Source of the DNA: Escherichia phage 308Ecol101PP
Direction: 5' to 3' (one strand)
Sequence record: OR062945.1
DNA: 64,000 nucleotides
Made by a program: the position numbers and the translations under genes. This document shows, piece by piece, positions 36,515 to 62,931 of this stretch. The notes beneath the pieces are model-generated. The model was not told the DNA's origin and did no database searches. It saw only the letters and a list, made by a program, of their open reading frames with translations. How positions within the stretch are numbered: the stretch's first letter is position 1; each line of letters begins with the position of its first letter.

Positions 36515-36550
36515 GTTTACATAAGGATGATGGCGTGTTACTATCATCCT
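36515..36550 (+). promoter_or_regulatory. early promoter with stem-loop (PeSL-type)
   Basis: GTTTACA, TGTTACTAT -10, inverted repeat AGGATGAT/ATCATCCT. Confidence 0.5.
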
Positions 36551-36578
36551 ATCAAATAAACGACCTCAAGGAAATAAA

Positions 36579-36866
36579 ATGAAAACCTATAAAGAATTTA
36601 TATCACCTGTTGCTAACGTTTCTACTCTGACCGAAGCAACCCTTACTTCCGAAGTTATTAAAGCAAATAAAGGACGTGAGGGTAAACCAATGATTAGTCT
36701 GGTTGACGGCGAAGAAGTAAAAGGTACTGTTTACTTAGGGGATGGATGGTCTGCTAAGAAAGATGGCGCTACTATTGTTATCTCTCCGGCTGAAGAGACT
36801 GCACTGTTTAAAGCTAAGCATATTTCTGTAGCTCAGCTTAAAATTATTGCAAAAACTCTTCTGTAA
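36579..36866 (+). CDS. internal-protein-like protein with capsid-targeting N-terminus
   Basis: 95 aa starting MKTYKEFI...; gp21-type L-x-E site at STLTE. Confidence 0.6.
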   Translation: MKTYKEFISPVANVSTLTEATLTSEVIKANKGREGKPMISLVDGEEVKGTVYLGDGWSAKKDGATIVISPAEETALFKAKHISVAQLKIIAKTLL

Positions 36867-36869
36867 GTA

Positions 36870-36906
36870 GTTTACATGCTGATAGGACTATGTTATAGTA
36901 GTCCTA
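36870..36906 (+). promoter_or_regulatory. early promoter with stem-loop (PeSL-type)
   Basis: GTTTACA, TGTTATAGT, inverted repeat ATAGGACTA/TAGTCCTAT. Confidence 0.5.
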
Positions 36907-36935
36907 TCAAATCAACAACCAAACGGAAAAAACAA

Positions 36936-37199
36936 ATGAAAACGTATAAAGAATTTATCGCTGAATCTCAATCTTCTACTCTGTCAGAGAACTACGAATC
37001 ATTCTCTTACAACAACGACCATGCAATGTTCTACGACCGAAACATCGGTACTTATGTCCATGTATGGGGTGTTAAAGATGGTAACGTAGTTGTTAAGAAA
37101 AACTCTAAAGAAGGCAATGGTCGTGGCCAGGTAAAAATTACCAGCAAGAAAGCTATCCAAGCTTACGTCGATTATGTTAAACGCGAAGCTGGTATTTAA
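36936..37199 (+). CDS. internal-protein-like protein with capsid-targeting N-terminus
   Basis: 87 aa starting MKTYKEFIAE. Confidence 0.6.
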   Translation: MKTYKEFIAESQSSTLSENYESFSYNNDHAMFYDRNIGTYVHVWGVKDGNVVVKKNSKEGNGRGQVKITSKKAIQAYVDYVKREAGI

Positions 37200-37201
37200 T
37201 A

Positions 37202-37239
37202 GTTTACATGATGATAGGACTATGTTATAGTAGTCCTAT
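37202..37239 (+). promoter_or_regulatory. early promoter with stem-loop (PeSL-type)
   Basis: Near-identical copy of the 36870 element. Confidence 0.5.
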
Positions 37240-37261
37240 CAAAACATGAGAGGATAATAAA

Positions 37262-37447
37262 ATGAAACGCGCTGAACTGATTCGTAATGTTGCTGTAGTA
37301 ATTGCTTCAATGGCTTTTAGTTTTTCGATGTTTGTAGGATTCATTTGTGGACTACTGACGACAACTGAAAATTCTATCTCATTGGTAGTAGCATTTCTAA
37401 TCGGCTTAATCGCTATCGTTATGGATAAAATTGCAAAAGGTGAGTAA
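37262..37447 (+). CDS. small hydrophobic membrane protein
   Basis: 61 aa, two hydrophobic segments. Confidence 0.5.
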   Translation: MKRAELIRNVAVVIASMAFSFSMFVGFICGLLTTTENSISLVVAFLIGLIAIVMDKIAKGE

Positions 37448-37448
37448 A

Positions 37449-38697: not shown

Positions 38698-38772
38698 GGC
38701 CCTGTAGCTCAATGGGAGAGCTGTCAGCTCATAACTGATAGGTAGCTGGATCGAAACCAGCCAGGGTCACCA
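38698..38772 (+). tRNA. tRNA with CAT anticodon (Met or lysidine-type Ile), encoded CCA
   Basis: Hand-folded cloverleaf: acceptor GGCCCTG/CAGGGTC, D stem GCTC/GAGC, anticodon stem GTCAG/CTGAT with loop CTCATAA, T stem GCTGG/CCAGC. Confidence 0.85.
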
Positions 38773-38775
38773 ATT

Positions 38776-38852
<77 letters not shown>

Positions 38853-39215: not shown

Positions 39216-39518
39216 GAAGCCGGGTCGCTACCGGCAAGTCGTCGGACTGATGTTCCCTGAGTAAGGACTGGTCTTAATAAATCTTTATGATTTGTTAATA
39301 TCCCCTTACATCACAGCAGAAACGGCGCAAAGAATTATCGATTCGAGGAAATATCTTTGCCGTAAGCCGAGTAGCGTTTTTGACGGAACGTTCGGATATG
39401 GTCGAGATATGGCCTTTTAAAAATATTGAGTAGCGTCAACTGCTTAATAACCGGGTTCGAATCCCGGCGTTTCGTACAAACACTTGCCTTAGTAGGTGGA
39501 AACCCCGACAAGGTATAT

Positions 39519-39548
39519 AGCCCCTTCCGAAAGGTTGGGGCTTTTTTG
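39519..39548 (+). terminator. rho-independent terminator (module A)
   Basis: AGCCCCTTCC-gaaa-GGTTGGGGCT followed by TTTTT. Confidence 0.6.
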
Positions 39549-39556
39549 TATAAATA
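39549..39556 (+). promoter_or_regulatory. late promoter
   Basis: TATAAATA 36 nt upstream of ATG at 39592. Confidence 0.45.
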
Positions 39557-39591
39557 TAGTAAACAATAAACCTACTTTCTAAGGACCATCA

Positions 39592-40218
39592 ATGTATACT
39601 TTTAATGAATTTTTAGCCGAAACGGAAGTAATCACCGAAGCCGGTGTACGTATGACAAAAGAGAAATGGCAAGCTGCTTACGATGCTATTTCTGGTACAA
39701 AAACTAGTACAGAGTTTTTCAAAAACGTTCAAGCCATGTATGGTATCGACACTTCCAGCCAAAAAGAATATTACAGAGCTTCTAAAGCATTCAAAGATAT
39801 TGTTAGTGGCGGTGTTTCTGCTAAATCGGGTTCGCCTAAAGTAAAACCTGCTCCTACCGTTCCTAAACCTGCGACCCCTAAAGCAATAGCAAAACCTGAG
39901 CCTAAGCCGGAAGTAAAAGCAACTCCTAAAGCTCCTGCTCTTAAGTTTGATACTTCTAGCCTGGAAAAAAAATATAAACAACTATCTTCGCTTGTTCGTG
40001 ATATTGAATCCGATACATCTTCACTCGTTCGTGAATTCAACAGTCTTCGTAATGGCCAACATATCAACAACCTTGATACCCCAGACCTTTATCGTCTTTA
40101 TTTGACTATTGAAGGTTTGAAGTACACTCAACCACTTCATGATGAGATTAAAGAAAAACTTCGTCAGGCAGGTCGTTTGGCTGCTGACGCTGCTCAGTAT
40201 GCAAAAACTCGTAAGTAA
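39592..40218 (+). CDS. internal-protein-like protein, Pro/Lys-rich central repeat
   Basis: 208 aa starting MYTFNEFLAE; KPAPTVPKPATPKAIAKPEPKPEVKATPKAP. Confidence 0.5.
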   Translation: MYTFNEFLAETEVITEAGVRMTKEKWQAAYDAISGTKTSTEFFKNVQAMYGIDTSSQKEYYRASKAFKDIVSGGVSAKSGSPKVKPAPTVPKPATPKAIAKPEPKPEVKATPKAPALKFDTSSLEKKYKQLSSLVRDIESDTSSLVREFNSLRNGQHINNLDTPDLYRLYLTIEGLKYTQPLHDEIKEKLRQAGRLAADAAQYAKTRK

Positions 40219-40223: not shown

Positions 40224-40245
40224 GGGGACTTCGGTCCCCTTTAGG
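40224..40245 (+). terminator. rho-independent terminator (module B)
   Basis: GGGGAC-ttcg-GTCCCC followed by TTTAGGGGG. Confidence 0.55.
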
Positions 40246-40270
40246 GGGTCTATAACTTACTGAAAAAGTT

Positions 40271-40307
40271 GTTTACTTCTTCCCTAGATGTGTTACTATA
40301 GTCCTAT
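40271..40307 (+). promoter_or_regulatory. early promoter (PeSL-type)
   Basis: GTTTACTTCT...TGTTACTATAGTCCTAT...GAGGAG. Confidence 0.5.
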
Positions 40308-40327
40308 TAAAACATGAGGAGAATATT

Positions 40328-40831
40328 ATGAGTCTTTACACTGAACTGAATAAAAAATCTGAAGAATCCGCTGAAACTATTTTTAAAAACGTGCAAAAGC
40401 GTATTTTAGAAAAGATGTATAACACTGCAGCTAAAGGTGAAAAATCTTGCCGGTTTCCGATGAGGTGTTCTTCCGATTTATGCGCAAATACTATTGAATG
40501 GCTGGAAAGTGAAGGTCTTACGGTAGAGAAAAACCCGGCGTCTTCTATTGACAGTGAATCATATATTAGTATTTCTTGGGATAAATCAAGGGTAGAAGAG
40601 AAAGATGGTGATTGGGTTGTAGATGTTAAAACTTCTGATGGCGGACGTTCTGTTGAAGTTTCAGCTGTAGTTAAAGGTACCCACGAACAAAGGACTTGGG
40701 GATGGGGTGGTGAAGAAAAAGAAATTGTTCTTAGTGTGATTGCCAGGTCAACTAGTAATAAAATTGCACAAAGCATCATTGACGCTGCAATTGCTGAAGC
40801 AGAAAAAATTTGCAAAATTAAAAATAAATGA
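40328..40831 (+). CDS. hypothetical protein
   Basis: 167-aa ORF. Confidence 0.55.
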   Translation: MSLYTELNKKSEESAETIFKNVQKRILEKMYNTAAKGEKSCRFPMRCSSDLCANTIEWLESEGLTVEKNPASSIDSESYISISWDKSRVEEKDGDWVVDVKTSDGGRSVEVSAVVKGTHEQRTWGWGGEEKEIVLSVIARSTSNKIAQSIIDAAIAEAEKICKIKNK

Positions 40832-40889
40832 TGTACAAACGCCAAGGACGGTGTTACTATAGACCTATCAACTACAGAGGAGAAACAAA

Positions 40890-41117
40890 ATGGCTACAGT
40901 TAGTATTGATGTCGTTGATTATGAATACACCGAAGAAGTTATTCGCAGCCGTCACCCTGAAGTTCGTATCGATTCAGTCCAAGATTCCAAGTTTTGGACA
41001 ACCGAGCTTAATCTGAGTGGTCCTTATGAAGCTGTTAAGAAGTTCATGGTTGAAGAATACTGCGAAGGCATGCACCCCGAAGACGCCGAGTTTTATGTCA
41101 ATTTGATTAAAAAATAA
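40890..41117 (+). CDS. hypothetical protein
   Basis: 75-aa ORF after promoter-like TGTACAAAC...TACTAT and AGAGGAG RBS. Confidence 0.5.
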   Translation: MATVSIDVVDYEYTEEVIRSRHPEVRIDSVQDSKFWTTELNLSGPYEAVKKFMVEEYCEGMHPEDAEFYVNLIKK

Positions 41118-41152
41118 TTTACAAACTCTTGAGAGCAGAGTATAATGCTCTC
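41117..41152 (+). promoter_or_regulatory. early promoter with stem-loop
   Basis: ATTTACA, 17-nt spacer, TATAAT inside inverted repeat GAGAGCA/TGCTCTC. Confidence 0.5.
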
Positions 41153-41187
41153 GTTGGATAATAAACCACCAATTGAAAGGTAATAAT

Positions 41188-41781
41188 ATGAACACACTGA
41201 AGAAACTTGTTGAATTCATCCGCACTAAACTTGGTACTGCTATGGCTAAAAATCTGACTGTCGAAGAACAGTATAACGCAGCTGCAGATAAGTTGATTAC
41301 CCAAATCAAAGAACTAAAAACGGCTTCTGTTAAATCTATTAATGAAGAAAAACGTATTCGCGAACTTGTTATTGAAAAGAATAAGCAAGCCGCTTCTAAG
41401 GAACGTGAAATTCGTAAGCTCTTGGCTGAAGGACAAGATGTTACCATGCATGCCAAGCTTGGTCTTCTGTATCGTCGAACTGCCGAACAACTTAATACAA
41501 AAGCTGACGGGTACGCTGCTATGCGAATTGAAATTGCTCGTAAGGTGGTTGAACTTGATGATGCTCGTCAGAACCTGGCAATCAAACTCGAATACATTCG
41601 TGAAACTCGAGCAGCCAATGCCCTTGGTATCTCTACGGCTGATGATGTAATTGAAATCGCTGCACTGACTAAGGTTGATATCGAAGACACTCTGACTCGT
41701 GTTGAAACGTTCAATGGCACTCCAGCTGGTGTCGAAACCACTTCTGCTGATGTACAAGAATATATTAACTCTTTGAAATAA
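41188..41781 (+). CDS. coiled-coil protein
   Basis: 197 aa, heptad-rich. Confidence 0.5.
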
Positions 41782-42427: not shown

Positions 42428-42791
42428 GCCCTGGGCATACGAATACAAACGTAAATTAATTCCTAATGAAGTGTTGTTTGGTCCTATTTTAGCTTTAGCA
42501 TTTTTAATCTTTATGATTATAGGAGCTATTTTAGATTCCAATAAAGTTATATCGTCTGATGCAGCATTTTCATTAATGTTCGTCGCACCACTTATTGTAC
42601 CGTTTTTATTAATGCCTATTAATTGGGTAGGATATTGGCACCAAGGCCGTCATCACAGAGCCCGATTAAGAGAATGGAAAGTTCAGTGCGCAAAAGCCCA
42701 AGCTCAATATGATGAAGCTGTTAAAAAGTATGAATATGAAGAAGCTATGGAATTCGTTAAGGAAATAAGATGCAAAAGCCTCAACTCTTAA
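42396..42791 (+). CDS. small membrane protein with conserved C-terminal tail
   Basis: 131 aa, hydrophobic segments, ends EFVKEIRCKSLNS. Confidence 0.5.
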   Translation: MSKPTLYMPIKPWAYEYKRKLIPNEVLFGPILALAFLIFMIIGAILDSNKVISSDAAFSLMFVAPLIVPFLLMPINWVGYWHQGRHHRARLREWKVQCAKAQAQYDEAVKKYEYEEAMEFVKEIRCKSLNS

Positions 42792-43129
42792 CCGTATGGC
42801 CGTCTCTTGGTGAGAACATTCTAATTTTTATTATGAGTATTGGCATGGGATTTGCCTTTGGATTAGTTGGATTTCTTATTGACGGAGTTGTGTTAGGATT
42901 TATAGGGAATACAGGTGGATTCACAGACCAATGGCAGGACCTAAGATACACCCAAGCTTTTGCATCTATCGCATCATTTTGTACTGTAGTCTATTTTTAC
43001 TACGATTTTATAAACCATAACAAGAAAAATAAAAAGGTTTACGCTTCTCAAATGATTAGTTATAATGAACTCCTAGCTAGACGTGAAAATGAAACAATAG
43101 AAAACTTTATTAAGGAATGTAGAAAATGA
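42770..43129 (+). CDS. small membrane protein with conserved C-terminal tail
   Basis: 119 aa, ends ENFIKECRK. Confidence 0.55.
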   Translation: MQKPQLLTVWPSLGENILIFIMSIGMGFAFGLVGFLIDGVVLGFIGNTGGFTDQWQDLRYTQAFASIASFCTVVYFYYDFINHNKKNKKVYASQMISYNELLARRENETIENFIKECRK

Positions 43130-43924: not shown

Positions 43925-43962
43925 GTTTACAACAAGATAGGGCTATGTTATAGTAGTCCTAT
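43925..43962 (+). promoter_or_regulatory. early promoter with stem-loop (PeSL-type)
   Basis: GTTTACA, TGTTATAGT, ATAGGGCTA/TAGTCCTAT. Confidence 0.5.
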
Positions 43963-43982
43963 CAAATTAAATGGAGTCCACA

Positions 43983-44222
43983 ATGATTTATTACGAAAGT
44001 ATCGGAACCAAAGTGGTTGGTAAAACCATTACTCGCGAAAAGTTTGCAAAGATATTCGATATGCGTTATAAAAAATCTGAACACAAAGGCATCCGATTCG
44101 AAGATGCGCACTGTACAATTTGTCCTTATAATGAAGACATAAACGGTACAATCGTTCCATTGGTAGAGGCTTCACATGATGACCTCTGGGATGAATATAA
44201 TATCGCATGTCGTGAAATTTAA
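43983..44222 (+). CDS. hypothetical protein
   Basis: 79 aa from ATG after TGGAG RBS. Confidence 0.5.
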   Translation: MIYYESIGTKVVGKTITREKFAKIFDMRYKKSEHKGIRFEDAHCTICPYNEDINGTIVPLVEASHDDLWDEYNIACREI

Positions 44223-45215: not shown

Positions 45216-45250
45216 GTTTACAAGGTCTGTAGTTGTTGATACTATAGACC
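45216..45250 (+). promoter_or_regulatory. early promoter with stem-loop
   Basis: GTTTACA, TACTAT, AGGTCT/AGACCT. Confidence 0.5.
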
Positions 45251-45282
45251 TATCAAAACAAATGAGTGAATGGAGATACAAA

Positions 45283-45483
45283 ATGACTACTTTGAATAAA
45301 CGTTTCGGTAAAGCTAAACCTGGCTGTGCAGCAGAACGTCGTTACATTTTCGCTCAGTTAGAAGATGTAGAGTATCAGATTAATCAAGTTCACATTACTG
45401 GCATCGAGCCTATGTGTGGCCTTGAAGCTCTTCGTGAAGTTCGTGACGGGTATCGTCGTGATATCGAAGAAATGTCAAAATAA
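45283..45483 (+). CDS. hypothetical protein
   Basis: 66 aa from ATG after TGGAGA RBS. Confidence 0.5.
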   Translation: MTTLNKRFGKAKPGCAAERRYIFAQLEDVEYQINQVHITGIEPMCGLEALREVRDGYRRDIEEMSK

Positions 45484-45521
45484 GTGTACAAACTGATAGG
45501 GCTATGTTATAGTAGTCCTAT
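45484..45521 (+). promoter_or_regulatory. early promoter with stem-loop (PeSL-type)
   Basis: GTGTACA, TGTTATAGT, ATAGGGCTA/TAGTCCTAT. Confidence 0.5.
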
Positions 45522-45541
45522 TAAAACATGAGGAGAATAAT

Positions 45542-45847
45542 ATGAAATTAACAGAAACCAACCGAATTGGTCTTTTAACAATACTTGCATCACCTTTTTA
45601 CGCAGCTCTTTCTGTTGCAGTATTACAAAAGGCTTACGATATGGATGGTGTTCCTGGTTTTGTATTCTTATCACCGTTTTTGCTATTCGTTGGAGCATTG
45701 TTATTATACGCCACGACTAGTTTCGACCATAATGTCTGGGTCAATTATAAATGTAAATTGTCTGAAGAAGAACACGCAGAAGCTCGTAAAAAAGCTATTG
45801 AATCTACCAATCTAGAAAATTTCATTAAAGAATGTCGAGGAAAATAA
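45542..45847 (+). CDS. small membrane protein with conserved C-terminal tail
   Basis: 101 aa, ends ENFIKECRGK. Confidence 0.55.
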   Translation: MKLTETNRIGLLTILASPFYAALSVAVLQKAYDMDGVPGFVFLSPFLLFVGALLLYATTSFDHNVWVNYKCKLSEEEHAEARKKAIESTNLENFIKECRGK

Positions 45848-46535: not shown

Positions 46536-47026
46536 TGATTAACAAAACATATTGGTCTAATATAGACGATGACAACGAAGGTATTTCATACTATTCAGTA
46601 GATTGGACGGGATGTCCATCCTACTTAGTGAAACATATTTGCCAAGAATTTAAAATCGACCAGCCAGCAGGTATTATTGTGAACAGATACATTAATGGAT
46701 ATCAACCTATCGATGAAGTAATACGAACAACTCAAGCTGATCTTGAAAAGTTTTTCAATAAGTGCCAATGGATAACAGGATGGATTATATTTGTACCGTC
46801 GGTATGGTTTTTTAGTACTAAAGTAAGTGCCTTTGCTGTACTAGATATTATCGCTATCTTATTAGCATCTACTATTGTAAGTATTATTGGTGGTATTATT
46901 GGTGGAGGTACTGTAGGCATCATTATTAATCTTGTTAAAAGTAGTTTACAGGAACGTAAAGACAAGATAAAGGCCAAGAATAATGAAGTTGAACGTTTTA
47001 TTACCGAATGCAGGAATTTGAGATGA
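46535..47026 (+). CDS. membrane protein with conserved C-terminal tail
   Basis: 163 aa, Gly/Ile-rich TM segment, ends ERFITECRNLR. Confidence 0.55.
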   Translation: MINKTYWSNIDDDNEGISYYSVDWTGCPSYLVKHICQEFKIDQPAGIIVNRYINGYQPIDEVIRTTQADLEKFFNKCQWITGWIIFVPSVWFFSTKVSAFAVLDIIAILLASTIVSIIGGIIGGGTVGIIINLVKSSLQERKDKIKAKNNEVERFITECRNLR

Positions 47027-47259
47027 GTATAGCAATTTACATTAAATCAGAATCATGTGATAGTTATCTGTACACATACGATAAAGACGTGTCAGAAGAA
47101 AAAATCAAAGACGATCTTAATATGGACCTTGATATGTTCTGTCCTATTGCAGATTACAAACTTGCGGTCTCTAATAGTGAAAGTCCATCTAAAGAAACGC
47201 GCATTGAAGAATTTATGTCCGAATTAATGGCTAAATCATGGGACCGAGATGATGAGTAA
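47023..47259 (+). CDS. hypothetical protein
   Basis: 78 aa; ATGA-coupled start. Confidence 0.5.
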   Translation: MSIAIYIKSESCDSYLYTYDKDVSEEKIKDDLNMDLDMFCPIADYKLAVSNSESPSKETRIEEFMSELMAKSWDRDDE

Positions 47260-47707: not shown

Positions 47708-47741
47708 GTAATAAATACCTCCTATAAACGTGGGAGGTATT

Positions 47742-48230: not shown

Positions 48231-48508
48231 AAACATATAGTGAATTTTTATCAGAATCTATTCTTAACGAAGCTACTGACACATTTGCAACTAAGCTAGG
48301 TGCAGCTTTGGTTGAAGCTGAAAGTCTATTAGCACGTATTTCTGAACTTGCTAGTAAGATAGATACTCGCAAATTTGAGCGCACCAGTGATATCGTTAAG
48401 CTTGAAGCCTTGTTGCGTATGTGCGATAAACCGGAAGAAATCGCTAAGAACGGCTCGCTGATGAAACAACGTCTTGAAAAATATATTTCAGGCGCTTCAG
48501 AAAAATAG
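48227..48508 (+). CDS. internal-protein-like protein with capsid-targeting N-terminus
   Basis: 93 aa starting [10 protein letters not shown]; ATGA overlap with lysozyme stop. Confidence 0.55.
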
Positions 48509-48509: not shown

Positions 48510-48545
48510 GTTTACTTCCTCCAAGGGTTTTGATACTATACATTC
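48510..48545 (+). promoter_or_regulatory. early promoter for denV
   Basis: GTTTACTTCCTCC...TGATACTATA. Confidence 0.5.
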
Positions 48546-48566
48546 ATCAACTACTTGGAGGAAATT

Positions 48567-48980
48567 ATGACTCGTATCAATTTAACACTTGTTTCTGAAC
48601 TGACCGACCAACATCTTATGGCTGAGTATCGTGAATTACCACGCGTATTTGGTGCAGTCCGTAAACATGTTCAAAACGGTAAACGTGTAAAGGATTTTAA
48701 AATCTCTCCAACATTTATCTTAGGCACAGGTCACGTAACATTCTTTTACGACAAACTCGAATTTTTACGTTTACGTCAAATCGAGCTAATCGCCGAATGC
48801 TTGAAACGTGGTTTCAAAATCAAGGACACATCTGTCCAAGATATTTCCGACATCCCTGCCGAATTTCGTAATAATTATGTCCCGTCCGAAGCGTCCATTG
48901 CGATAAGTCAAGCACGCTTAGATGAAAAAATTGCTCAGCGCCCGACTTGGTACAAATACTATGGTAAATCAATTTACTAA
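48567..48980 (+). CDS. denV: endonuclease V (pyrimidine dimer DNA glycosylase)
   Basis: 137 aa [31 protein letters not shown]..., near-identical to T4 endo V. Confidence 0.95.
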
Positions 48981-49250: not shown

Positions 49251-49280
49251 GTTTACGCTTAAGTATTAATATGGTATAAT
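49251..49280 (+). promoter_or_regulatory. early promoter
   Basis: GTTTAC, 18-nt spacer, TATAAT. Confidence 0.5.
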
Positions 49281-49310
49281 TACTCTATCAAAACAAATAA
49301 GGAAACAAAA

Positions 49311-49640
49311 ATGAAAACGTATCAAGAGTTTATCACTGAAGTTACATTATCTGCGGAACAGAAAGCTGCTATCGAAGAAGGTAAAAATCCCAAAGTAACA
49401 TATAAAGTAAATGGTAAAGGCGTTTTTGATGGCTTGGTTCAAGACCCTGAATTGAAAAAAGCTCTTTCTAAAACTAATGCGTACTTTGCTCCTAAATTTA
49501 ACGCAGCCGGTGTACTTATTGGATTGGATGTATTCAACTCTAAAGGTGTTCTATCTAATGCCTTTGGTTATGCCGCTAACAAAATTACCAAAGCCGAATG
49601 GGAATCCAATACCAAACAAGCTCAAAAGCCTAGAGTATAA
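49311..49640 (+). CDS. internal-protein-like protein with capsid-targeting N-terminus
   Basis: 109 aa starting MKTYQEFITE. Confidence 0.6.
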   Translation: MKTYQEFITEVTLSAEQKAAIEEGKNPKVTYKVNGKGVFDGLVQDPELKKALSKTNAYFAPKFNAAGVLIGLDVFNSKGVLSNAFGYAANKITKAEWESNTKQAQKPRV

Positions 49641-51726: not shown

Positions 51727-51772
51727 GTTTACTTCTCCTCTAGTTGTGTTACTATAGACCTGTCAACTAGAG
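51727..51772 (+). promoter_or_regulatory. early promoter with stem-loop (PeSL-type)
   Basis: GTTTACTTCTCCTC, TGTTACTATAG, CTAGTTG/CAACTAG. Confidence 0.5.
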
Positions 51773-51783
51773 GAGAAATCAAA

Positions 51784-52242
51784 ATGACTATCAATTCAGA
51801 CGTTTTTATCCGCCGCAATAAACTCCGTCGAATCTTTGAAACGGAGTTCCGCAAAATAAATGCCGGTATAAAAGATGCTGCAAAGTCTCTTGGACTACCA
51901 GGCTTTCATATCAAGTATTCTCAACATCTCTTAGATCGTGCCATCCAGAGAGAAATAGATGAGAACTACGTTTTTGAATTATTTCGTAAAGTAAAAAATC
52001 ATGTTAAAGAAGTTGCAGAATTTTTATCAATGCCGGCACGTCCAGATGTTGATGAAGATTTTGTCGAAGGTGTCGAATACCGTCCAGGCCGTTTAGAAAT
52101 AACTGACGGAAATCTTTGGTTAGGACTTACAGTTTGTCGCGAAAATCCAGCATTCAAAATGAAGACTCTTCAATGCAGAATGGCTATTATTAACAGTAAA
52201 CGACTACCAGGAAAAGCTTCTAAAGCAGTGATTAAAATCTAG
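51784..52242 (+). CDS. regB: endoribonuclease RegB
   Basis: 152 aa; size, position near tk/denV and recalled similarity to T4 RegB. Confidence 0.7.
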   Translation: MTINSDVFIRRNKLRRIFETEFRKINAGIKDAAKSLGLPGFHIKYSQHLLDRAIQREIDENYVFELFRKVKNHVKEVAEFLSMPARPDVDEDFVEGVEYRPGRLEITDGNLWLGLTVCRENPAFKMKTLQCRMAIINSKRLPGKASKAVIKI

Positions 52243-53137: not shown

Positions 53138-53597
53138 AAACTATATCAAGGGCGATATTGTCGCCCTGTTTTCTAAAGGTAATAATATCGCTCATGGGTG
53201 TAATTGTTTTCATACAATGGGCGCCGGCGTGGCAGGACAATTAGCAAAGGCTTATCCAAAAATTCTGGAAGCCGATAAACTTCAAACCGAATTTGGAGAC
53301 GAGTCTAAACTCGGGACTTATTCGGTTTATGAAAAATATTTTAAGACCCATAAAGCTTATTGCTTTAATCTTTATACACAGTTTGAGCCTGGACCTAATT
53401 TTGAGTACTATGCTTTAATGAATTGTATAATAGAATTAAATGAATTCGGAAAGAATAAGATAACAAAGCCTGTACTTTATATGCCAAGAATTGGTGCAGG
53501 TATCGGTGGCGGAAACTGGGATGTCATCGAAGAGATTTTAGATACGTATTCCACTAAACTAGAAATTGTGATTGTTGATTGGGAACCATTATTATGA
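53130..53597 (+). CDS. macro-domain-like protein (start uncertain; longest frame begins at TTG 53100)
   Basis: IAHGCNCFHTMGAGVAGQL and RIGAGIGGGNW resemble macro-domain Gly-rich motifs. Confidence 0.4.
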   Translation: MIKNYIKGDIVALFSKGNNIAHGCNCFHTMGAGVAGQLAKAYPKILEADKLQTEFGDESKLGTYSVYEKYFKTHKAYCFNLYTQFEPGPNFEYYALMNCIIELNEFGKNKITKPVLYMPRIGAGIGGGNWDVIEEILDTYSTKLEIVIVDWEPLL

Positions 53598-53806
53598 ATA
53601 TACATTATCCACATCCATATGACCCAAAGAATAAGGCAGTAATTATTCGTCAATGGGAACGCATTTGTCGTACCAAATGTCCAATTAATAGTCCACATGA
53701 TGTAGATAAAGACTACATCGGAACATTCGTTGAATATACCTTTATTGATAAGAAAGGCCGTAAACAACATGTAGAAGAATATTGCTTAAAGGTGTCATGG
53801 CTATGA
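53594..53806 (+). CDS. hypothetical protein
   Basis: 70 aa; ATGA coupling. Confidence 0.45.
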   Translation: MNIHYPHPYDPKNKAVIIRQWERICRTKCPINSPHDVDKDYIGTFVEYTFIDKKGRKQHVEEYCLKVSWL

Positions 53807-54009
53807 GTCAAACAAAAATTCTTACAGGTGCTAAATGCGAAAAATGCGAATGGCCTGTAGTTTTTGCTTTATGCAATAACGAAATGGCTTGTGATTTTGA
53901 TTATTGGTGTTACTGTTCGAACAAAGGTTGTAGCAATCATAAAGGTGAAGGGTTTTACTCAGGATTTTACCCTTACCCGGATTTCGTTAAAGAAGGTGAA
54001 CCTAAATGA
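53803..54009 (+). CDS. Cys-rich small protein (possible zinc-binding)
   Basis: 68 aa; CEKCEW...CNNEMACDFDYWCYCSNKGC. Confidence 0.45.
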   Translation: MSQTKILTGAKCEKCEWPVVFALCNNEMACDFDYWCYCSNKGCSNHKGEGFYSGFYPYPDFVKEGEPK

Positions 54010-54197: not shown

Positions 54198-54779
54198 ATG
54201 GCTAGTTTAATTTTTACATATGCCGCTATGAACGCTGGTAAGTCTGCTTCATTACTTACTGCCGCACATAACTATAAAGAACGTGGCATGGGTGTATTAG
54301 TTCTTAAACCGGCTATTGATACTCGCGATTCAAAAGGTGAAATAGTCTCTCGTATTGGTATTCGTCAGGACGCCAATATAATTACAAAAGACATGGATAT
54401 CTTTGAATTCTATAAATGGGCTGCAGCACAAAAGGATATTCATTGTGTATTTGTTGACGAAGCTCAGTTCTTAACTACTGAAAAGGTGTATCAACTTAGT
54501 CGTATTGTTGACGTATACAATGTGCCGGTAATGGCATATGGACTACGAACAGATTTTAAAGGTAATCTATTTGAAGGTTCTCAAGCATTAATGGCTATTG
54601 CCGATAAGCTTGTTGAACTTAAAGGTGTCTGTCATTGTGGTAAAAAGGCCACAATGGTAGCTAGAGTCACGGAAGACGGACTTCCAATTACGGATGGCAG
54701 TCAAATTGAAATTGGTGATACCGATAGATATGTGTCATTATGCCGGAAGCATTGGAATGATTTGACAGGGTTGTTATAA
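54198..54779 (+). CDS. tk: thymidine kinase
   Basis: 193 aa; P-loop AAMNAGKSASL, C-terminal CHCG...C zinc motif; same length as T4 Tk. Confidence 0.92.
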   Translation: MASLIFTYAAMNAGKSASLLTAAHNYKERGMGVLVLKPAIDTRDSKGEIVSRIGIRQDANIITKDMDIFEFYKWAAAQKDIHCVFVDEAQFLTTEKVYQLSRIVDVYNVPVMAYGLRTDFKGNLFEGSQALMAIADKLVELKGVCHCGKKATMVARVTEDGLPITDGSQIEIGDTDRYVSLCRKHWNDLTGLL

Positions 54780-54782
54780 ATA
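54775..54782 (+). promoter_or_regulatory. late promoter
   Basis: TATAAATA 25 nt upstream of ATG at 54807. Confidence 0.45.
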
Positions 54783-55379: not shown

Positions 55380-55415
55380 GTTTACTTCTCCTCAGGTTGT
55401 GTTATAGTAGACCTT
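55380..55415 (+). promoter_or_regulatory. early promoter (PeSL-type)
   Basis: GTTTACTTCTCCTC...TGTTATAGTAG...AGAGGAG. Confidence 0.5.
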
Positions 55416-55435
55416 ACTTACTAGAGGAGAACGTT

Positions 55436-55615
55436 ATGTCACGTAAAGAAAAAATTTCTAAGTTAATGTTTTTGATTGAAGAGTACGCTAATGCGGTATC
55501 TGATTGGGAAAATGCTCATGGTTGCGAAGATGGAGACATCGACATTAACAGAGCTATGAAAAAGATGGCAGATGCCCACACCGAATTGCAAATGTATGTT
55601 AACGAGATTATGTGA
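55436..55615 (+). CDS. hypothetical protein
   Basis: 59 aa. Confidence 0.45.
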   Translation: MSRKEKISKLMFLIEEYANAVSDWENAHGCEDGDIDINRAMKKMADAHTELQMYVNEIM

Positions 55616-55622: not shown

Positions 55623-55790
55623 ATGCTTTACGATTATACTGGAAAATCTGAAGACGGTGTACTTGAACTTTTACCTGAAAGCGCTGAAGATGATGATATG
55701 GTGGTGATATATTGTGTTGGTTGTCAATCAATGCATGATGAAATTTTTAAACGTGAACCAAGAAACTGTTGGCACAGGAGCATGAGATGA
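55623..55790 (+). CDS. hypothetical protein, MLYD paralog 1
   Basis: 55 aa starting MLYDYTGKSEDGV. Confidence 0.45.
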   Translation: MLYDYTGKSEDGVLELLPESAEDDDMVVIYCVGCQSMHDEIFKREPRNCWHRSMR

Positions 55791-55882
55791 TTTATTATCT
55801 TGAACCTTGGGCTTGGTTAACAATGGCTGTAGGACCTGTTTTAATTGGTTTATTCTTTTCATGGTTGGCGAGGAAACTGTAA
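55787..55882 (+). CDS. possible 31-aa hydrophobic micro-protein
   Basis: ATGA and TAATG coupling on both sides; MIYYLEPWAWLTMAVGPVLIGLFFSWLARKL. Confidence 0.3.
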   Translation: MIYYLEPWAWLTMAVGPVLIGLFFSWLARKL

Positions 55883-56097
55883 TGTTATATGACCCAAGCG
55901 GTTGTTCTGAAGATGGTGTGATTGTTCTGGAGCCTGAGCATCCAGTTGGTGATGTATATCGCACCGTTGAAGTATGTGAATGTAATTTCGTTGAAGGTAA
56001 TACTGGCGGAATTTCCATTGAGCAAGAAGATGATGTTATTTACCTGGATGCAAGCCAAGTAGAAGCTCTTTATAGCATTTTAAAACATAATCGGTAG
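55882..56097 (+). CDS. hypothetical protein, MLYD paralog 2
   Basis: 71 aa starting MLYDPSGCSEDGV. Confidence 0.5.
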   Translation: MLYDPSGCSEDGVIVLEPEHPVGDVYRTVEVCECNFVEGNTGGISIEQEDDVIYLDASQVEALYSILKHNR

Positions 56098-56135
56098 TTT
56101 ACGTCTTGGTAGGACTATGTTATAGTAGTCCTACC
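56097..56135 (+). promoter_or_regulatory. early promoter with stem-loop (PeSL-type)
   Basis: GTTTAC, TGTTATAGT, GGTAGGACTA/TAGTCCTACC. Confidence 0.5.
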
Positions 56136-56154
56136 AAAACAAATGGAGAACAAA

Positions 56155-56265
56155 ATGAAACTTTTGCTTATCGCTTATGTTGTAGTACAATACAATTATC
56201 CGATGTTTACTTATAACATGGTAAACGGCATAGTGAATCTTATTGAAACGAGTATGGTAAAATGA
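56155..56265 (+). CDS. possible 36-aa hydrophobic peptide
   Basis: ATG after TGGAGA RBS, below ORF-track size cutoff. Confidence 0.35.
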   Translation: MKLLLIAYVVVQYNYPMFTYNMVNGIVNLIETSMVK

Positions 56266-56441: not shown

Positions 56442-56442
56442 T

Positions 56443-58741: not shown

Positions 58742-58765
58742 GGGGACCTTCGGGTCCCTTTAGGG
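58742..58765 (+). terminator. rho-independent terminator (module B, second copy)
   Basis: GGGGACC-ttcg-GGTCCC followed by TTTAGGGGG. Confidence 0.55.
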
Positions 58766-58789: not shown

Positions 58790-58826
58790 GTGTACATGCT
58801 TTTAGGATATGTTATTATAGACCTAT
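58790..58826 (+). promoter_or_regulatory. early promoter (PeSL-type)
   Basis: GTGTACA...TGTTATTATAGACCTATCAAAAC. Confidence 0.5.
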
Positions 58827-58856
58827 CAAAACGAAATGAGTAAATTGGAGAATAAA

Positions 58857-59837
58857 ATGTTCAACGTTCAAATCAAAAAAGGTATCTATCGTAATAACGA
58901 AATCTCTGGTTCTTATGTTGCCACAAAGACCTGGTTCCCAGCAAAGCTTAATCCTGAATGTTCCCACTTAGGTGATGGTAAAATTTTCGTTATGATTGAT
59001 GGTTCTGAACGCGGAGTATGGGTCTTCAAATCAGACATCGTAATGGAAGGAGTTGAGACGTCACCAGTTGCAGTTGTTGAAAGCACTGAAGATATGAAAA
59101 CTCGTATCAACAAACGCTTTAAAGTAATGAACATGATGACGAATGGCATTATCGATGGCAAAATTCGTTCACTCATTATTTCAGGTGCAGCTGGTATTGG
59201 TAAGACGTATTCTCTGGATAAAGCACTTAATAATGCTAATGATAACGGTTTCATCAAATACAAAAGCATTAATGGTAAAATCTCTGGTATTGGCCTTTAC
59301 GAACAACTTTGGCTCAACCGTGATGCGGACAGCGTTCTCTTAATCGACGACGTTGACGTATTCTCAGATATGGACATCTTGAACCTTCTTAAAGCAGCAT
59401 TAGATACTGGAGATAAACGCAAAGTTTGCTGGAGCACTGCGTCATCTTATCTCGATGATAAGGGTATTGATAAAGAATTTGAGTTTGAAGGTACTATCGT
59501 TTTCATTACAAACGTTGATATCGATAAAGAGTTAGAACGCGGTTCGAAACTTGCCCCACACCTTCAAGCTTTAGTATCTCGTTCAGTGTATCTCGACCTT
59601 GGAGTACACTCTAATGAAGAGATTATGGTTCGAGTTGAAGATGTAATATTATCTACTGACATGATGCAGAAACGTGGTCTGACAGATGCAGAAACGTATA
59701 AAGCATTGTCCTGGATGAAGGCTAACGTATCTCGTCTTCGCAATGTATCATTACGTACGGCTCTTTACGTAGCAGATTTTATTTCAACTGATAAAGATGG
59801 TTGGGAAGAAATCTCGGAAGTTACTTTACTGAAATAA
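58857..59837 (+). CDS. P-loop ATPase (AAA-like)
   Basis: 326 aa; Walker A GAAGIGKT, Walker B VLLIDDVD. Confidence 0.55.
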   Translation: MFNVQIKKGIYRNNEISGSYVATKTWFPAKLNPECSHLGDGKIFVMIDGSERGVWVFKSDIVMEGVETSPVAVVESTEDMKTRINKRFKVMNMMTNGIIDGKIRSLIISGAAGIGKTYSLDKALNNANDNGFIKYKSINGKISGIGLYEQLWLNRDADSVLLIDDVDVFSDMDILNLLKAALDTGDKRKVCWSTASSYLDDKGIDKEFEFEGTIVFITNVDIDKELERGSKLAPHLQALVSRSVYLDLGVHSNEEIMVRVEDVILSTDMMQKRGLTDAETYKALSWMKANVSRLRNVSLRTALYVADFISTDKDGWEEISEVTLLK

Positions 59838-59975: not shown

Positions 59976-60263
59976 ATGGATTTTATGCAAAAAATTAAAG
60001 CCGCAGTAGAACTCTATGCTCATCGTATGGTTAGTTCTACAATGCAATATAGCGAGGAGGTTCGCCAGGACTCTTCCTTGAAAGGAAAAACTAAAGCCTT
60101 AATTACCTTAGATCGTTTGCAAAAGAATGCCATAGAGATGCTCCAGTACGACAAGGCTGTATATAAGAAAGAACAGGAAGAGAAACTTAAATCTGAAAAA
60201 TTACAGAAAATTCCGAAATCGGTTTGGTTCAGTGGAAAAAATACCGAAAAAAGTTTCTTTTAG
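59976..60263 (+). CDS. hypothetical protein
   Basis: 95 aa. Confidence 0.5.
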   Translation: MDFMQKIKAAVELYAHRMVSSTMQYSEEVRQDSSLKGKTKALITLDRLQKNAIEMLQYDKAVYKKEQEEKLKSEKLQKIPKSVWFSGKNTEKSFF

Positions 60264-60265
60264 TT

Positions 60266-60300
60266 GTTTACAAGGTCTATAGTTATGTTATTATAGACCT
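60266..60300 (+). promoter_or_regulatory. early promoter with stem-loop (PeSL-type)
   Basis: GTTTACA, TGTTATTATAG, AGGTCTATA/TATAGACCT. Confidence 0.5.
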
Positions 60301-60321
60301 ATCAACTACTGGAGGTAAAAC

Positions 60322-60849
60322 ATGAACGCTAAAGATATTTTCAACCTGGTAAATTATAACGACGGTAAATTTAAATCTGAAGCACAAAGCAAGTTCTTTA
60401 ATGACGTTGCTTATGGTAACGAGATTACCGTGGACGGAGGTCAGATTTTCAAATCTCGCTGGAATTGGATTGCTATCATCGATTCAGTTGGAATTGTGGA
60501 AGTCTACAAAAACACTAACAAAAAACGTACATTATTCTGGTCTCGTGAAACTAACGAGCAGTACAAAAAGGATAAAGCATCTCGTTTATCCAAAGTAACC
60601 CAGGAAGATATCGAGTTTATCAAGAAAGATATCGAGATGTACGAAAATTTAATCGCTGAAGACCAGGCAGTACTCGATAAGTTTGATGAAATTAAAGCTT
60701 CTCGTGAAATCCCTGACTTCATGAAAGAAACAGTAAACGAACGATACGCTCTCACTTCAGAACGTATTGCAAACTATACAAAACAGAAAGCAGAACGTAT
60801 TAGTACTCTTCGGAAATTTGAAGAACGTTTAAAGACGGTTCACGCATAA
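60322..60849 (+). CDS. hypothetical protein
   Basis: 175 aa. Confidence 0.55.
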   Translation: MNAKDIFNLVNYNDGKFKSEAQSKFFNDVAYGNEITVDGGQIFKSRWNWIAIIDSVGIVEVYKNTNKKRTLFWSRETNEQYKKDKASRLSKVTQEDIEFIKKDIEMYENLIAEDQAVLDKFDEIKASREIPDFMKETVNERYALTSERIANYTKQKAERISTLRKFEERLKTVHA

Positions 60850-60911
60850 ACGCTTTACCCAAGGACGGGTTATAATGGTTTTGAGTTCCAATTCAATCTG
60901 AGGAAATAGAT

Positions 60912-61907
60912 ATGAGCATTACATCTGATGCGGTAAAACATGAAATTAACGGTTTATGTGCTTCACAGATTAAAGTGTGGTTTAAAGACCATAATGATCG
61001 CAGAGCACTTAATTATGAGCAAATTGCTATCCAAGTTCATCAATTACTGACTAGTAAATTTGATTTTCATATGCCGTCTGAAATTTATACTAATCTACCG
61101 CGAGCGCTTATTAAAGCGTGTAAAGGTTACGGAAAATCAATGGCTGATGGAATCTTCAGCGCGCTGAATAAACTTAACGTTCTGTCGATGATTAACTCTA
61201 ACAACATTCTGCGTAATCTAGGACGTACTGATTTGTTCGGTCGTGAACAGTGTAAAATGCCTTTGAAATGGATTGTTGCTCATCTTAACGAGAACCAAAC
61301 ACGTTTTATGGCCGTATCAGCACGCTTACAAATGGGCCTAGATCGTCAGATGAACTTTAAAACTCATCCACGGTATTCAGGTTCAACAGACTTTTATAAA
61401 TGTGAGCTTCAAAAGGTTGCAGGTAAAACTGTCTTAGTAGTTCGTGTAACGTTTGAAGGACGACGTCAAGGATATTTTGACCTAATCGGCTCTGGTCTTA
61501 AACATTGTGGATTTATTGACGAAGTTGATATTAAGCGAGACGGCATTGGATACCGTATTGGATATGTTTGTACTCTTAAAGAAGAGATTTCAGGACCAGC
61601 ACCAGGACTAAAAGACGTTAGATATAAAGACGAGCTTGTTGAAGAAATAAAAGAAGTTGAATATGATATCAACCAAGAAGATGCTCTTAAAGACCTTATT
61701 GATGAACTAAACCAAGACATTATTCCGGTTCAGAAATTTGAATCAAAACATGCTGAGCAAATCAAATACTTTGAAGCTTTGATTAACGAACTTAATGTAA
61801 CTATTCAACAGACTGATGATGAAATCTCACGATTAGCAGGCTTAAATGGTAAAAATAAAACGGAACGAGCTAATCTTATTCAAGTAGTAAAACTTCTTAA
61901 GGAATGA
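60912..61907 (+). CDS. hypothetical protein with C-terminal coiled coil
   Basis: 331 aa. Confidence 0.55.
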   Translation: MSITSDAVKHEINGLCASQIKVWFKDHNDRRALNYEQIAIQVHQLLTSKFDFHMPSEIYTNLPRALIKACKGYGKSMADGIFSALNKLNVLSMINSNNILRNLGRTDLFGREQCKMPLKWIVAHLNENQTRFMAVSARLQMGLDRQMNFKTHPRYSGSTDFYKCELQKVAGKTVLVVRVTFEGRRQGYFDLIGSGLKHCGFIDEVDIKRDGIGYRIGYVCTLKEEISGPAPGLKDVRYKDELVEEIKEVEYDINQEDALKDLIDELNQDIIPVQKFESKHAEQIKYFEALINELNVTIQQTDDEISRLAGLNGKNKTERANLIQVVKLLKE

Positions 61908-61936
61908 TGTACAACCAGGGATGGTTGGAGTATAAT
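61908..61936 (+). promoter_or_regulatory. early promoter with stem-loop
   Basis: TGTACAACCAGGGATGGTTGGAGTATAAT. Confidence 0.5.
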
Positions 61937-61962
61937 AAATTTTTCAACATGAGGAATATAAA

Positions 61963-62898
61963 ATGGCTTCTATTACACGTAGAGAACTTATCAAAGAATT
62001 TACCTCGAACGCATATACCCCAGGTCCTAATCCTATCCGTATGCCTGTAAAGACTCCTGAAGAGATTGAGGAAATCTGTTCATATTATGGGATTACTTCT
62101 CGTAAGTTTACTCAATTTGAATGCGTTACTAACACACCAGTTAAAGAGTTCATTAAAAATGGCGAGTTCAGTCGTTTATTAGCCAAACAGAAACTTCGTA
62201 ATTTTTGTATTGGCGGTGAAGGACAATATTTTGCTAAACAGTTCAGAAATAACCTTAACAATCTGATGGCCATTGCTTCTCGTATTCGTCCTCAAGCAAT
62301 TAACATGAAACATTTGAAATATACTTACGATAAGTTAGAAATCATGGTTATCAGTGAGAACGAGTTCACTCTTACGTATAAACCTAAGAATGATAACGTT
62401 GCTCGTGTATTCCACCAAGCGTTGGAAGTGTTAGGTGATAATATTTACCAGATTAAAGCAATTTATTCTCGTGAGCTTAATATTATCAACCCTATCAAGA
62501 ATAAGGGCCATATCGCTATCCAGGCTCGTGTATCTATTGGTAAAAAGGTTCCTGCGCCATGGTGGCACAAAGACTCTGAATACTATCAAAATCTTAAAAA
62601 GGAAAATGCAACGTTCGAAGCGTCAATTACTGCAACCCCAATTGGCAACGCTGAAGTTCTAGGTGCATATTCTACTGCTCCATCTATATACACTTCACCG
62701 TCGACTAAACTGGAAATCTCTAACGGTCTTCTTCCTGCCGAAGATTACTATTATAATCAAATCAAAGCCACTGTGGACCAACTGTCTGTTGAACTTGACA
62801 AAGCACAAGCTAAGCTTCGTGATGCTCAACAAGTAGTTACCAAGCTCCAGTTGCAGTACTCTAAACTTTTTAACGCAATGAATGCATTAAAATCATAA
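61963..62898 (+). CDS. hypothetical protein with C-terminal coiled coil
   Basis: 311 aa. Confidence 0.55.
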   Translation: MASITRRELIKEFTSNAYTPGPNPIRMPVKTPEEIEEICSYYGITSRKFTQFECVTNTPVKEFIKNGEFSRLLAKQKLRNFCIGGEGQYFAKQFRNNLNNLMAIASRIRPQAINMKHLKYTYDKLEIMVISENEFTLTYKPKNDNVARVFHQALEVLGDNIYQIKAIYSRELNIINPIKNKGHIAIQARVSIGKKVPAPWWHKDSEYYQNLKKENATFEASITATPIGNAEVLGAYSTAPSIYTSPSTKLEISNGLLPAEDYYYNQIKATVDQLSVELDKAQAKLRDAQQVVTKLQLQYSKLFNAMNALKS

Positions 62899-62901
62899 AT
62901 C

Positions 62902-62931
62902 AGTTTACAACCAAGGATGGTTGGAGTATAA
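62902..62931 (+). promoter_or_regulatory. early promoter with stem-loop
   Basis: GTTTACAACCAAGGATGGTTGGAGTATAAT; near-copy of the 61908 element. Confidence 0.5.

Follow-up and report, generated by a model that had tools for sequence, protein, structure and literature searches.

What are the small promoter-like elements that recur between the accessory genes of a T4-type phage, what is the function of the inverted repeats that they contain, and do they mediate the exchange of genes? The question is raised by a stretch of 64,000 nucleotides (nt) of Escherichia phage 308Ecol101PP (sequence record OR062945.1; the window), in which a cassette composed of an early promoter, an inverted repeat and a ribosome-binding site recurs between positions 36515 and 62963. 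A previous inspection of the letters (the sequence-only reading) had interpreted these copies as promoter-early stem-loop (PeSL) elements that partition the accessory region. The explanation that we consider probable is that they are early promoters of the T4 type organized as PeSL-type cassettes, that their hairpins act in read-through RNA, and that the copies serve as a substrate for recombination.

The window stems from an RB69-like phage of the T4 type (Mosigvirus); Escherichia phage RB69 and about 100 further Mosigvirus genomes share an identity of approximately 96% with the region. The first 36 kb are occupied by structural genes, among them those for the major capsid, portal and baseplate proteins. 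According to the RB69 annotation, the gene order on the plus strand is 57B, ipI, tRNAs, e.8-e.2, nudE, e, denV, vs.8-vs.4, regB, vs, tk, rI, mobD.x, and nrdC.11-nrdC.3. The stretch from 57B to nrdC.3 corresponds to the classical hyperplastic early region known from T4-type phages.

The strict pattern (TTTAC or TGTAC) N16-19 TA(T/C)(A/T)(A/G)T was used to locate promoters, and dinucleotide shuffles of the whole window served as null model. In the window, 23 matches were found on the plus strand and three on the minus strand, compared to 2.1 ± 1.4 in the shuffles. Between 36.4 and 63 kb there are 19 plus-strand matches versus 0.84 ± 0.92 in the shuffles; 18 of them are intergenic and the remaining one (43038) lies within the e.3 homologue. 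Thus, the at least 18 early-promoter cassettes claimed by the sequence-only reading for positions 36515-62931 were recovered, with 18 intergenic copies in 26.4 kb versus one in the other 37 kb of the window. A scan with a generic sigma-70 consensus gave no overall excess in this A/T-rich DNA (56 matches where 45 were expected, and 48 where 49 were expected); only the T4-type pattern is informative. A search of 36-64 kb with Rfam covariance models yielded only two tRNAs at E ≤ 0.1; the cassettes match no family.

All 18 cassettes lie on the plus strand and have the same layout: a stop codon, a -35 of the GTTTAC type, a 17-nt spacer, a TGnTA..T -10, a CCTATCAA start region, a Shine-Dalgarno (SD) sequence, and an ATG. 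The first copy begins at 36515 and the -10 of the last one ends at 62932. Note that in lists the elements are named by the position 1 nt after the cassette start, such that 36516 denotes the cassette 36515..36581 (Table 1). The distance between the upstream stop codon and the -35 is 0-6 nt in most copies, and in two the elements overlap; the distance from the -10 to the SD and ATG is 28-45 nt. The consensus over the aligned copies, which bears out the motifs quoted in the sequence-only reading, is aaAataGTTTACa, a 17-nt spacer, tTGtTAtaaT, and Ag.CCTATCAAa. A TGn extended -10 and an A-rich upstream stretch are visible in it, and the A+T content of the 20 nt upstream of the cassettes is 75%, that of the window 62%. 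The resulting early promoter consensus aaAataGTTTACa ... tTGtTAtaaTAg.CCTATCAA is of the T4 type and fits the published description (PMC1524935), in which GTTTAC occupies -36 to -31, an A-rich element lies upstream, the -10 is GT-rich or TG extended and, for RB69, C is found at -3 to -1. In that study (Nolan et al. 2006, Additional file 3), 58 early promoters were predicted for RB69, 21 of which fall in the matching 27-kb region. All 20 elements that were found in the RB69 locus coincide with this list, including the counterpart of the intragenic site 43038.

PeSL elements were defined on RB49/phi1 (Arbiol et al. 2010, PMC2839356) and later extended to T4/PST and KVP40/nt-1 (Comeau et al. 2014, PMC4122927). 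With those of RB49/phi1, the cassettes share an A/T-rich upstream stop codon, a sigma-70-type early promoter, an SD sequence and start codon, a stem-loop that is mostly located between -35 and -10 or over the -10, clustering in hyperplastic regions, and insertions or deletions (indels) between close relatives at or near the elements. With those of T4/PST, they share the consensus TTTACW N17 TAYWAT, the genome region, and the link to swapped open reading frames (ORFs) including internal-protein genes. There are also differences. The -35 of the RB49/phi1 elements is TTGACA instead of the T4-type GTTTAC, and the stems found here contain more A/T and no polyG/polyC. The PST stem-loop is depicted immediately upstream of the promoter (PMC4122927), whereas here the arms are inside the promoter and most copies lack upstream room. 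Unlike in the PST layout, a separate upstream hairpin precedes only three copies (40272, 55381 and 58791, i.e. the cassettes 40271, 55380 and 58790); these G+C-rich hairpins with a short T run were read by eye, and our own terminator detector missed all three although they are obvious. Published stem-loop positions are upstream of the -35, over the -35, between the boxes, over the -10, and just after the -10 (PMC2839356). A stem-loop at one of these positions was found in 11 copies (nine over the -10, two in the spacer), and three more copies pair the spacer with the SD, which is not among the five. Promoter, terminator and mini-circle activities were measured for RB49/phi1 (PMC2839356), whereas the cassettes described here are known from sequence alone. 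The RB69 list gives a promoter logo only, and a term search of its text revealed no mention of stem-loops, hairpins or inverted repeats (PMC1524935). Every sequence-level feature that defines PeSL elements is present. As judged from this architecture, which agrees with the published definition, the cassettes are PeSL-type elements in a hyperplastic region, as had been proposed, and extend the class to RB69-like phages. By itself, this finding changes little.

In order to characterize the hairpins, each element was folded from the -35 to the start codon and compared with shuffles. For 11 of the 19 elements, the fold is better than in at least 97.5% of the shuffles. The sequence-only reading had assumed a single layout with one arm on either side of the -10. 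This holds for nine of the 18 copies (36516, 36871, 37203, 41118, 43926, 45217, 45485, 56098, and 60267); the others pair with the SD, have their hairpin in the spacer, or, in four cases, have none. The -10-spanning helices comprise 8-13 base pairs (bp), and the upstream half of the -10 sits in the loop. Four unrelated arm pairs occur in these nine copies, namely AGGATGATGG/CTATCATCCT, (TG)ATAGGACTAT/GTAGTCCTAT(CA), TGAGAGCA/TGCTCTCG, and AGGTCT(A/G)TAGT/A(C/T)TATAGACCT. A single consensus structure for them was dropped because the register of the helix varies between families. A second class, in which the spacer pairs with the SD, consists of the copies preceding denV (-19.1 kcal/mol, z = -4.5) and regB (-21.6 kcal/mol, z = -4.5). 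In a third class, a helix of 6 bp is confined to the spacer (61908 and 62904).

Several results indicate that the hairpins are under selection for pairing and not for sequence. The window contains at least seven unrelated arm sequences, and the hairpin of copy 56098 differs from the 36871 family by a compensatory A-T to G-C change. Within Mosigvirus, the arms GATAGG...CCTATC have changed to GGTAGG...CCTACC, and the G-T intermediate occurs in other genomes. At other promoters, the further arm pairs GATAGGGTA/TACCCTATC and GGGCTCAT/ATGAGCCC were found in LF82-41 and PhAPEC2, respectively. In other genera, the orthologous promoters of e.6, nrdC.8, regB and denV possess unrelated arms. Those upstream of e.6 are wholly different (GAGAGCA/TGCTCTC, GGCTCAT/ATGAGCC or GTGTAGGAG/CTCCTACAC). 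Upstream of nrdC.8, Mosigvirus has a -10-spanning hairpin and two other lineages have the spacer/SD helices GTTCCTCTGT/ACGGAGGAAC and CTCCAGTAG/CTACTGGAG; pairing of the spacer with the SD was seen at this promoter in Tequatrovirus-like contigs.

This variability bears on the possibility that a dimeric phage repressor, by which early promoters would be shut off, uses the palindromes around the -10 as operators. The symmetry does overlap the -10, and the shut-off mechanism of T4 early promoters has been described as incompletely understood (PMC3014915). A protein binding site would however conserve its sequence, whereas the arms vary in sequence and in their register to the -10 while complementarity is kept, and half of the promoters lack such a repeat. 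The operator reading was rejected for these reasons and is hardly credible. Alternatively, the inverted repeats might act in DNA, either as a cruciform or single-strand hairpin that draws in recombination or a structure-specific nuclease, or as the target of a site-specific recombinase; shuffling would then be their purpose and not a by-product. The PeSL papers left open whether recombination is homologous or site-specific and detected mini-circles, and one RB49 crossover was mapped to the loop. On the other hand, the sense strand tolerates G-T pairs, and in 19 of 22 structured clusters its fold is more stable than that of the antisense strand (mean -16.1 versus -13.2 kcal/mol), compared to 63% of similarly structured random 55-mers of the region. 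This bias favours RNA, in which G-U pairs form, over duplex DNA. Moreover, the hairpin-free cassettes 40832 and 49252 are indel junctions as well, and the events in FL31 and RB69 described below need just 25-45 bp of homology. A role in DNA is therefore very unlikely, and an action of the hairpins in RNA is preferred.

In which RNA they could form depends on the position of their arms. The 5' arm is located upstream of the predicted start site, the A of CCTATCAA, in every hairpin type; in some denV lineages the arm begins where the -10 ends and reaches about +3. The transcript originating at a cassette would thus lack its own 5' arm, and the hairpin would be possible only in RNA that reads through from upstream. 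According to terminator-like scans, there is no such site on the plus strand between 45485 and 48511 or between 49252 and 51728, i.e. between the upstream promoters and denV or regB, and read-through RNA is hence expected for both genes. If this 5'-arm rule applies, the hairpins are markers that separate own-promoter RNA from read-through RNA.

These considerations suggest the following mechanism. The cassettes would be sigma-70 early promoters of the T4 type that are joined to the leader and ribosome site of the gene that follows, and host RNA polymerase would start about 7 nt past the -10. Because a cassette fills the entire intergenic gap, an RNA hairpin would have to be written into the unconstrained positions of the promoter. 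The nine -10-spanning hairpins would leave the ribosome site free; for most of them, the predicted accessibility of the SD is the same or lower in the own transcript. Their most likely role is that of an intercistronic attenuator or of a 3'-end decay barrier for the upstream message, which has been shown in the literature for only one RB49 element. A literature search yielded no T4 3'-end or Term-seq maps able to show ends at such hairpins. The spacer-SD hairpins of denV, regB and, weakly, mobD.2a would mask the ribosome site in read-through RNA. Consequently, translation of these genes would for the most part depend on transcripts of their own early promoter, and RegB would have no access to the GGAG in read-through RNA.

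The predicted accessibility of the SD in the read-through and the own transcript is 0.10 versus 0.60 for denV, 0.18 versus 0.48 for regB, and 0.16 versus 0.57 for mobD.2a. The regB helix was found in five genera, namely Mosigvirus, Tequatrovirus (Sf21-like), Gelderlandvirus (STML-198), Moonvirus (CF1) and Jiaodavirus (KPV15). MAFFT combined with RNAalifold gave no structure for the regB upstream regions, because small indels shift the arms out of register; the sequences were compared in an in-register pair table anchored on GGAGA. In this table, the outer six pairs are constant across genera, whereas compensatory two-sided changes occur at the inner positions 7 (C-G/G-C/T-A), 10 (G-C/G-T/T-A/A-T), and 11 (T-A/A-T/G-C). 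For denV, 28 distinct Straboviridae-like upstream sequences were compared; nearly all of them have an SD helix, for which at least eight different arm pairs are used. In each of the 27 denV upstream regions with a placeable promoter, the SD is predicted to be less accessible in the read-through form than in that from the own promoter (median 0.20 versus 0.51). At some promoters, in Jiaodavirus-like sequences upstream of regB (L020/L021) and in one sequence upstream of denV (L058), a -10-spanning helix (GGGCCAT/ATGGCCC or ATAGGGT/ACCCTAT) is nested inside the spacer/SD helix.

A similar logic is known from the T4 genes e, soc, 49 and I-TevI, whose ribosome site is masked by a hairpin with a proximal late promoter inside (PMC3014915). 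There, as predicted for denV and regB, long transcripts fold over the SD and proximal transcripts lack the 5' arm; for denV and regB, pairing of the SD or AUG in long transcripts and the loss of the 5' arm from the proximal one were found in silico only. However, the promoter inside the T4 hairpins is a late one and delays expression, whereas that of denV and regB is of the early type (GTTTAC N17 TACTAT). The two cassettes would therefore work like this class without being members of it, and regB and denV do not appear in the review's list of hairpin-gated genes (PMC3014915). An early promoter in a masking hairpin would result in the reverse of late gating, i.e. in translation during the first minutes only. 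This fits the shut-off of the regB promoter after 2-3 minutes and the tight limitation that the RegB product needs; it also agrees with the reported protection of GGAG from RegB by RNA structure (PMC3014915).

It is thus conceivable, albeit with less than even confidence, that a conserved early-promoter translational switch exists by which regB and denV (and also, in a lineage-dependent manner, nrdC.8 and mobD.2a) are translated only from their own early-promoter RNA and are silent and RegB-resistant on read-through RNA. Such a switch would explain why RegB is made only during the first minutes after infection, and the 5'-arm rule yields a model for the time-restricted expression of regB and denV that is testable in T4 itself. 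Masking of the regB or denV SD gated by an early promoter is not described in the PeSL papers or in the review on T4 post-transcriptional control, a comparison that leaves aside the older T4 literature; its novelty is uncertain.

The spacer/SD helices could also be read as devices for translational coupling, in which the ribosome that ends the upstream gene melts the 5' arm and downstream translation depends on upstream translation. Classical coupling hairpins occur, for example, in RNA phages, and the upstream stop codon 6-12 nt before the 5' arm corresponds to their geometry. The terminating ribosome would however touch only the first pairs of a 10-14 bp helix, and the beginning of the 5' arm lies within or downstream of the -10 in many denV lineages, at least 30 nt from the stop codon. 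Given that the arm is always upstream of the start site, promoter gating is the better fit, and coupling is unlikely.

In order to assess gene shuffling, positions 35-64 kb of the window were aligned with the same locus of seven Mosigvirus genomes (RB69, JN02, LF82-41, p000y, PhAPEC2, FL31, and PNJ-9). As anticipated by the sequence-only reading, gain, loss and replacement of genes at the elements were observed in these relatives; chimeric junctions were found as well. Gene content is not identical, and an indel breakpoint is present at 13 of the 18 cassette junctions, compared to 14 of 45 others (odds ratio 5.8, p = 0.0045) or to 9 of 34 tight or overlapping junctions (p = 0.003). Of the 47 breakpoint clusters, 20 belong to the 18 cassette junctions and 14 to junctions between other genes; the remaining 13 are intragenic. 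The statement that nearly every accessory cassette is bounded by an element went too far: there are 18 elements for approximately 62 genes, which corresponds to one per 3-4 genes, runs of 7-13 genes contain none, and 27 of the 47 clusters lie away from any cassette. In sum, the previous interpretation was right in kind, as the elements are of the PeSL type, but overstated in reach.

Individual events are informative. FL31 lacks nrdC.5 exactly between cassettes 61908 and 62904 and has kept one chimeric cassette, whose upstream flank stems from 61908 and whose downstream flank stems from 62904; the crossover lies within the shared ACAACCA(A/G)GGATGGTTGGAGTATAAT. RB69, in which the junction is chimeric as well, JN02, p000y and PhAPEC2 possess a single cassette where the window has a cassette, the ORF 36936-37199, and a second cassette. 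Likewise, the ORF 45283-45483 is present or absent as a unit that extends from -35 to -35. Insertions of relatives at 36547-36601, 40852-40925, 41112-41126, 49287-49333, and 58797-58861 have junction overlaps of 15-74 bp that are the cassette itself. Cassette-free events also occur (42786..43037, 47026..47246, 53587..53998, and 55715..56023). The near-identity of copies over 25-75 bp would provide a substrate for homologous recombination, which would lead to insertions, deletions and swaps of a gene plus its cassette. These are clean examples of cassette-mediated gene gain and loss and help to read the accessory genes of therapeutic T4-like phages, including those for injected internal proteins.

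The observations also allow for a simpler explanation, according to which the elements are ordinary early promoters: similarity between copies would reflect consensus and recent duplication, hairpins would be inherited, and indels would be found where genes stay unbroken. The RB69 orthologues were listed as plain promoters in 2006 (PMC1524935), and one hairpin family is common to five copies in the window. In contrast, the number of unrelated arm sequences in the window, the compensatory changes and the wholly different arms at orthologous promoters of other genera, and the crossovers within the shared core with chimeric cassettes at junctions speak against it. We regard ordinary promoters as an improbable explanation and prefer PeSL-type cassettes with hairpins acting in read-through RNA.

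Several points weigh against this preference. Compared with element-free spacers of at least 25 nt, the enrichment of breakpoints at cassettes is not significant (13/18 versus 5/11, p = 0.24), as ordinary promoters would predict; indel tolerance of any spacer may thus explain part of the association. No significant hairpin is present in five of the 19 copies folded (3436, 40272, 40832, 49252, and 58791), four of which are in the 36515-62963 range. The mobD.2a copy has an 8-bp outer spacer/SD helix as in the denV/regB class, but does not fold better than shuffles. Many copies are paralogues or orthologues, such that the hairpin and sense/antisense counts are not independent. The embedded hairpins lack a T run after the helix, ATCAAAAC being found instead, and none was called in terminator-like scans. 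A classical terminator role of the -10-spanning hairpins is therefore unlikely; the canonical terminator reading of the embedded hairpins was rejected on these grounds, and the role as decay barrier is a proposal. The start site, 7 nt past the -10, was deduced from spacing, in agreement with the C-rich positions -3 to -1 of RB69 promoters (PMC1524935). Finally, the SD-masking helix could be opened in part by a ribosome that terminates 12 nt before the 5' arm.

Table 1. Position, downstream gene and pairing arms of the cassettes. All are on the plus strand.
Cassette	Downstream gene	5' arm	3' arm	Further features
3435..3497				outside the 36515-62963 range; -35 3435-3440, -10 3459-3464, ATG 3495; no significant hairpin
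36515..36581	ipI-like internal-protein gene	AGGATGATGG 36524-36533	CTATCATCCT 36541-36550	-10-spanning hairpin; indel junction in RB69 and FL31
36870..36938	extra small ORF (36936-37199)	TGATAGGACTAT 36880-36891	GTAGTCCTATCA 36898-36909	left copy of gene+cassette unit missing in RB69, JN02, p000y, PhAPEC2
37202..37264	tRNA.4	37212-37223	37230-37241	hairpin family as in 36870
40271..40330	ORF146c-like gene			no -10 hairpin; weak spacer/SD complementarity; preceded by G+C-rich terminator-like hairpin 40224-40242; right breakpoint of replacement at 40265/40300
40831..40892	frd.3			-35 ATGTAC overlaps upstream stop codon; no significant hairpin; four relatives have insertions of 138-153 bp at this junction
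41117..41190	e.6	TGAGAGCA 41130-41137	TGCTCTCG 41146-41153	arms flank TATAAT
43925..43985	ORF135c homologue	GATAGGGCTAT 43936-43946	GTAGTCCTATC 43953-43963	
45216..45285	extra ORF (66 amino acids)	AGGTCTGTAGT 45223-45233	ACTATAGACCT 45241-45251	left end of -35-to--35 unit missing in RB69, PhAPEC2, FL31
45484..45544	ORF133c homologue	45494-45505	45512-45523	
48510..48569	denV	TTCCTCCAAG 48516-48525 (spacer)	CTTGGAGGAA 48554-48563 (SD)	
49251..49313	ORF123c homologue (internal-protein-like N-terminus)			no significant hairpin; indel junction in 7/7 relatives
51727..51786	regB	TTCTCCTCTAGTTG 51733-51746 (spacer)	CAACTAGAGGAGAA 51764-51777 (SD)	
55380..55438	mobD.2a	TTCTCCTC 55386-55393 (spacer)	GAGGAGAA 55424-55431	terminator-like hairpin upstream
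56097..56157	small mobD.2-like ORF	56106-56118	56125-56137	13-bp hairpin
58790..58859	nrdC.10			no embedded hairpin; terminator-like hairpin 58742-58762 upstream; right end of ORF replacement
60266..60324	nrdC.8	AGGTCTATAGT 60273-60283	ATTATAGACCT 60290-60300	
61907..61965	nrdC.5	CAACCA	TGGTTG	small spacer hairpin; weak helix 61939-61946 / 61950-61957 over SD
62903..62963	nrdC.3	62908-62913	62918-62923	small spacer hairpin

Six genes (36579-36866, 36936-37199, 48227-48508, 48987-49247, 49311-49640, and 39592-40218) have in common an N-terminus of the form MKTY(K/Q/S)EF(I/L) or MY..EF(I/L)AE, and three of these small genes match PHROG families of internal head or virion proteins. As the repeats at indel junctions extend from the promoter into the first codons, internal-protein genes are swapped as units of promoter plus targeting peptide. 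A 250-bp deletion in LF82-41 and FL31 has its right end exactly at the promoter-like site GTTTACGCTTCTCAAATGATTAGTTATAAT within the e.3 homologue (43037-43066); the RB69 counterpart of this site is the low-scoring entry Pe:70143 of the published promoter list.

Other variable parts of the region are non-coding or encode tRNAs. Positions 38698-38849 contain two tRNA genes (Met and Arg by RB69 annotation), and the array comprises three tRNAs in PhAPEC2 and ten in p000y. A non-coding stretch of approximately 300 nt (39216-39591) follows the ORF150c homologue. It has no Rfam match; the annotation of one relative places rnaC in this locus. The stretch is followed by a terminator-like hairpin (about 39520-39548) and by the late-promoter motif TATAAATA (39549-39556); the gene behind this motif, which encodes 208 amino acids, is replaced by other genes in RB69, p000y, and PhAPEC2. 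A G+C-richer non-coding stretch of 170 nt upstream of the vs.8 homologue (49641-49812), also lacking an Rfam match, is replaced by 634-1314 bp in PhAPEC2 and FL31.

Promoters and hairpins of other types were also noted. The SD of the lysozyme gene e is covered by a 12-bp hairpin, AATACCTCCTAT/GTGGGAGGTATT (47714-47741; -16.3 kcal/mol, z = -4.1), and a TATAAA late-promoter-like motif extends across the top of this hairpin; T4 gene e is known to have this arrangement, which is conserved here. Upstream of nrdC.6 (60852-60876), GCTTTA, 13 nt and TATAAT fit the pattern of a MotA-dependent middle promoter and not that of an early one. The late motif TATAAATA also occurs at 54775-54782, where it overlaps the tk stop codon and precedes rI.1.

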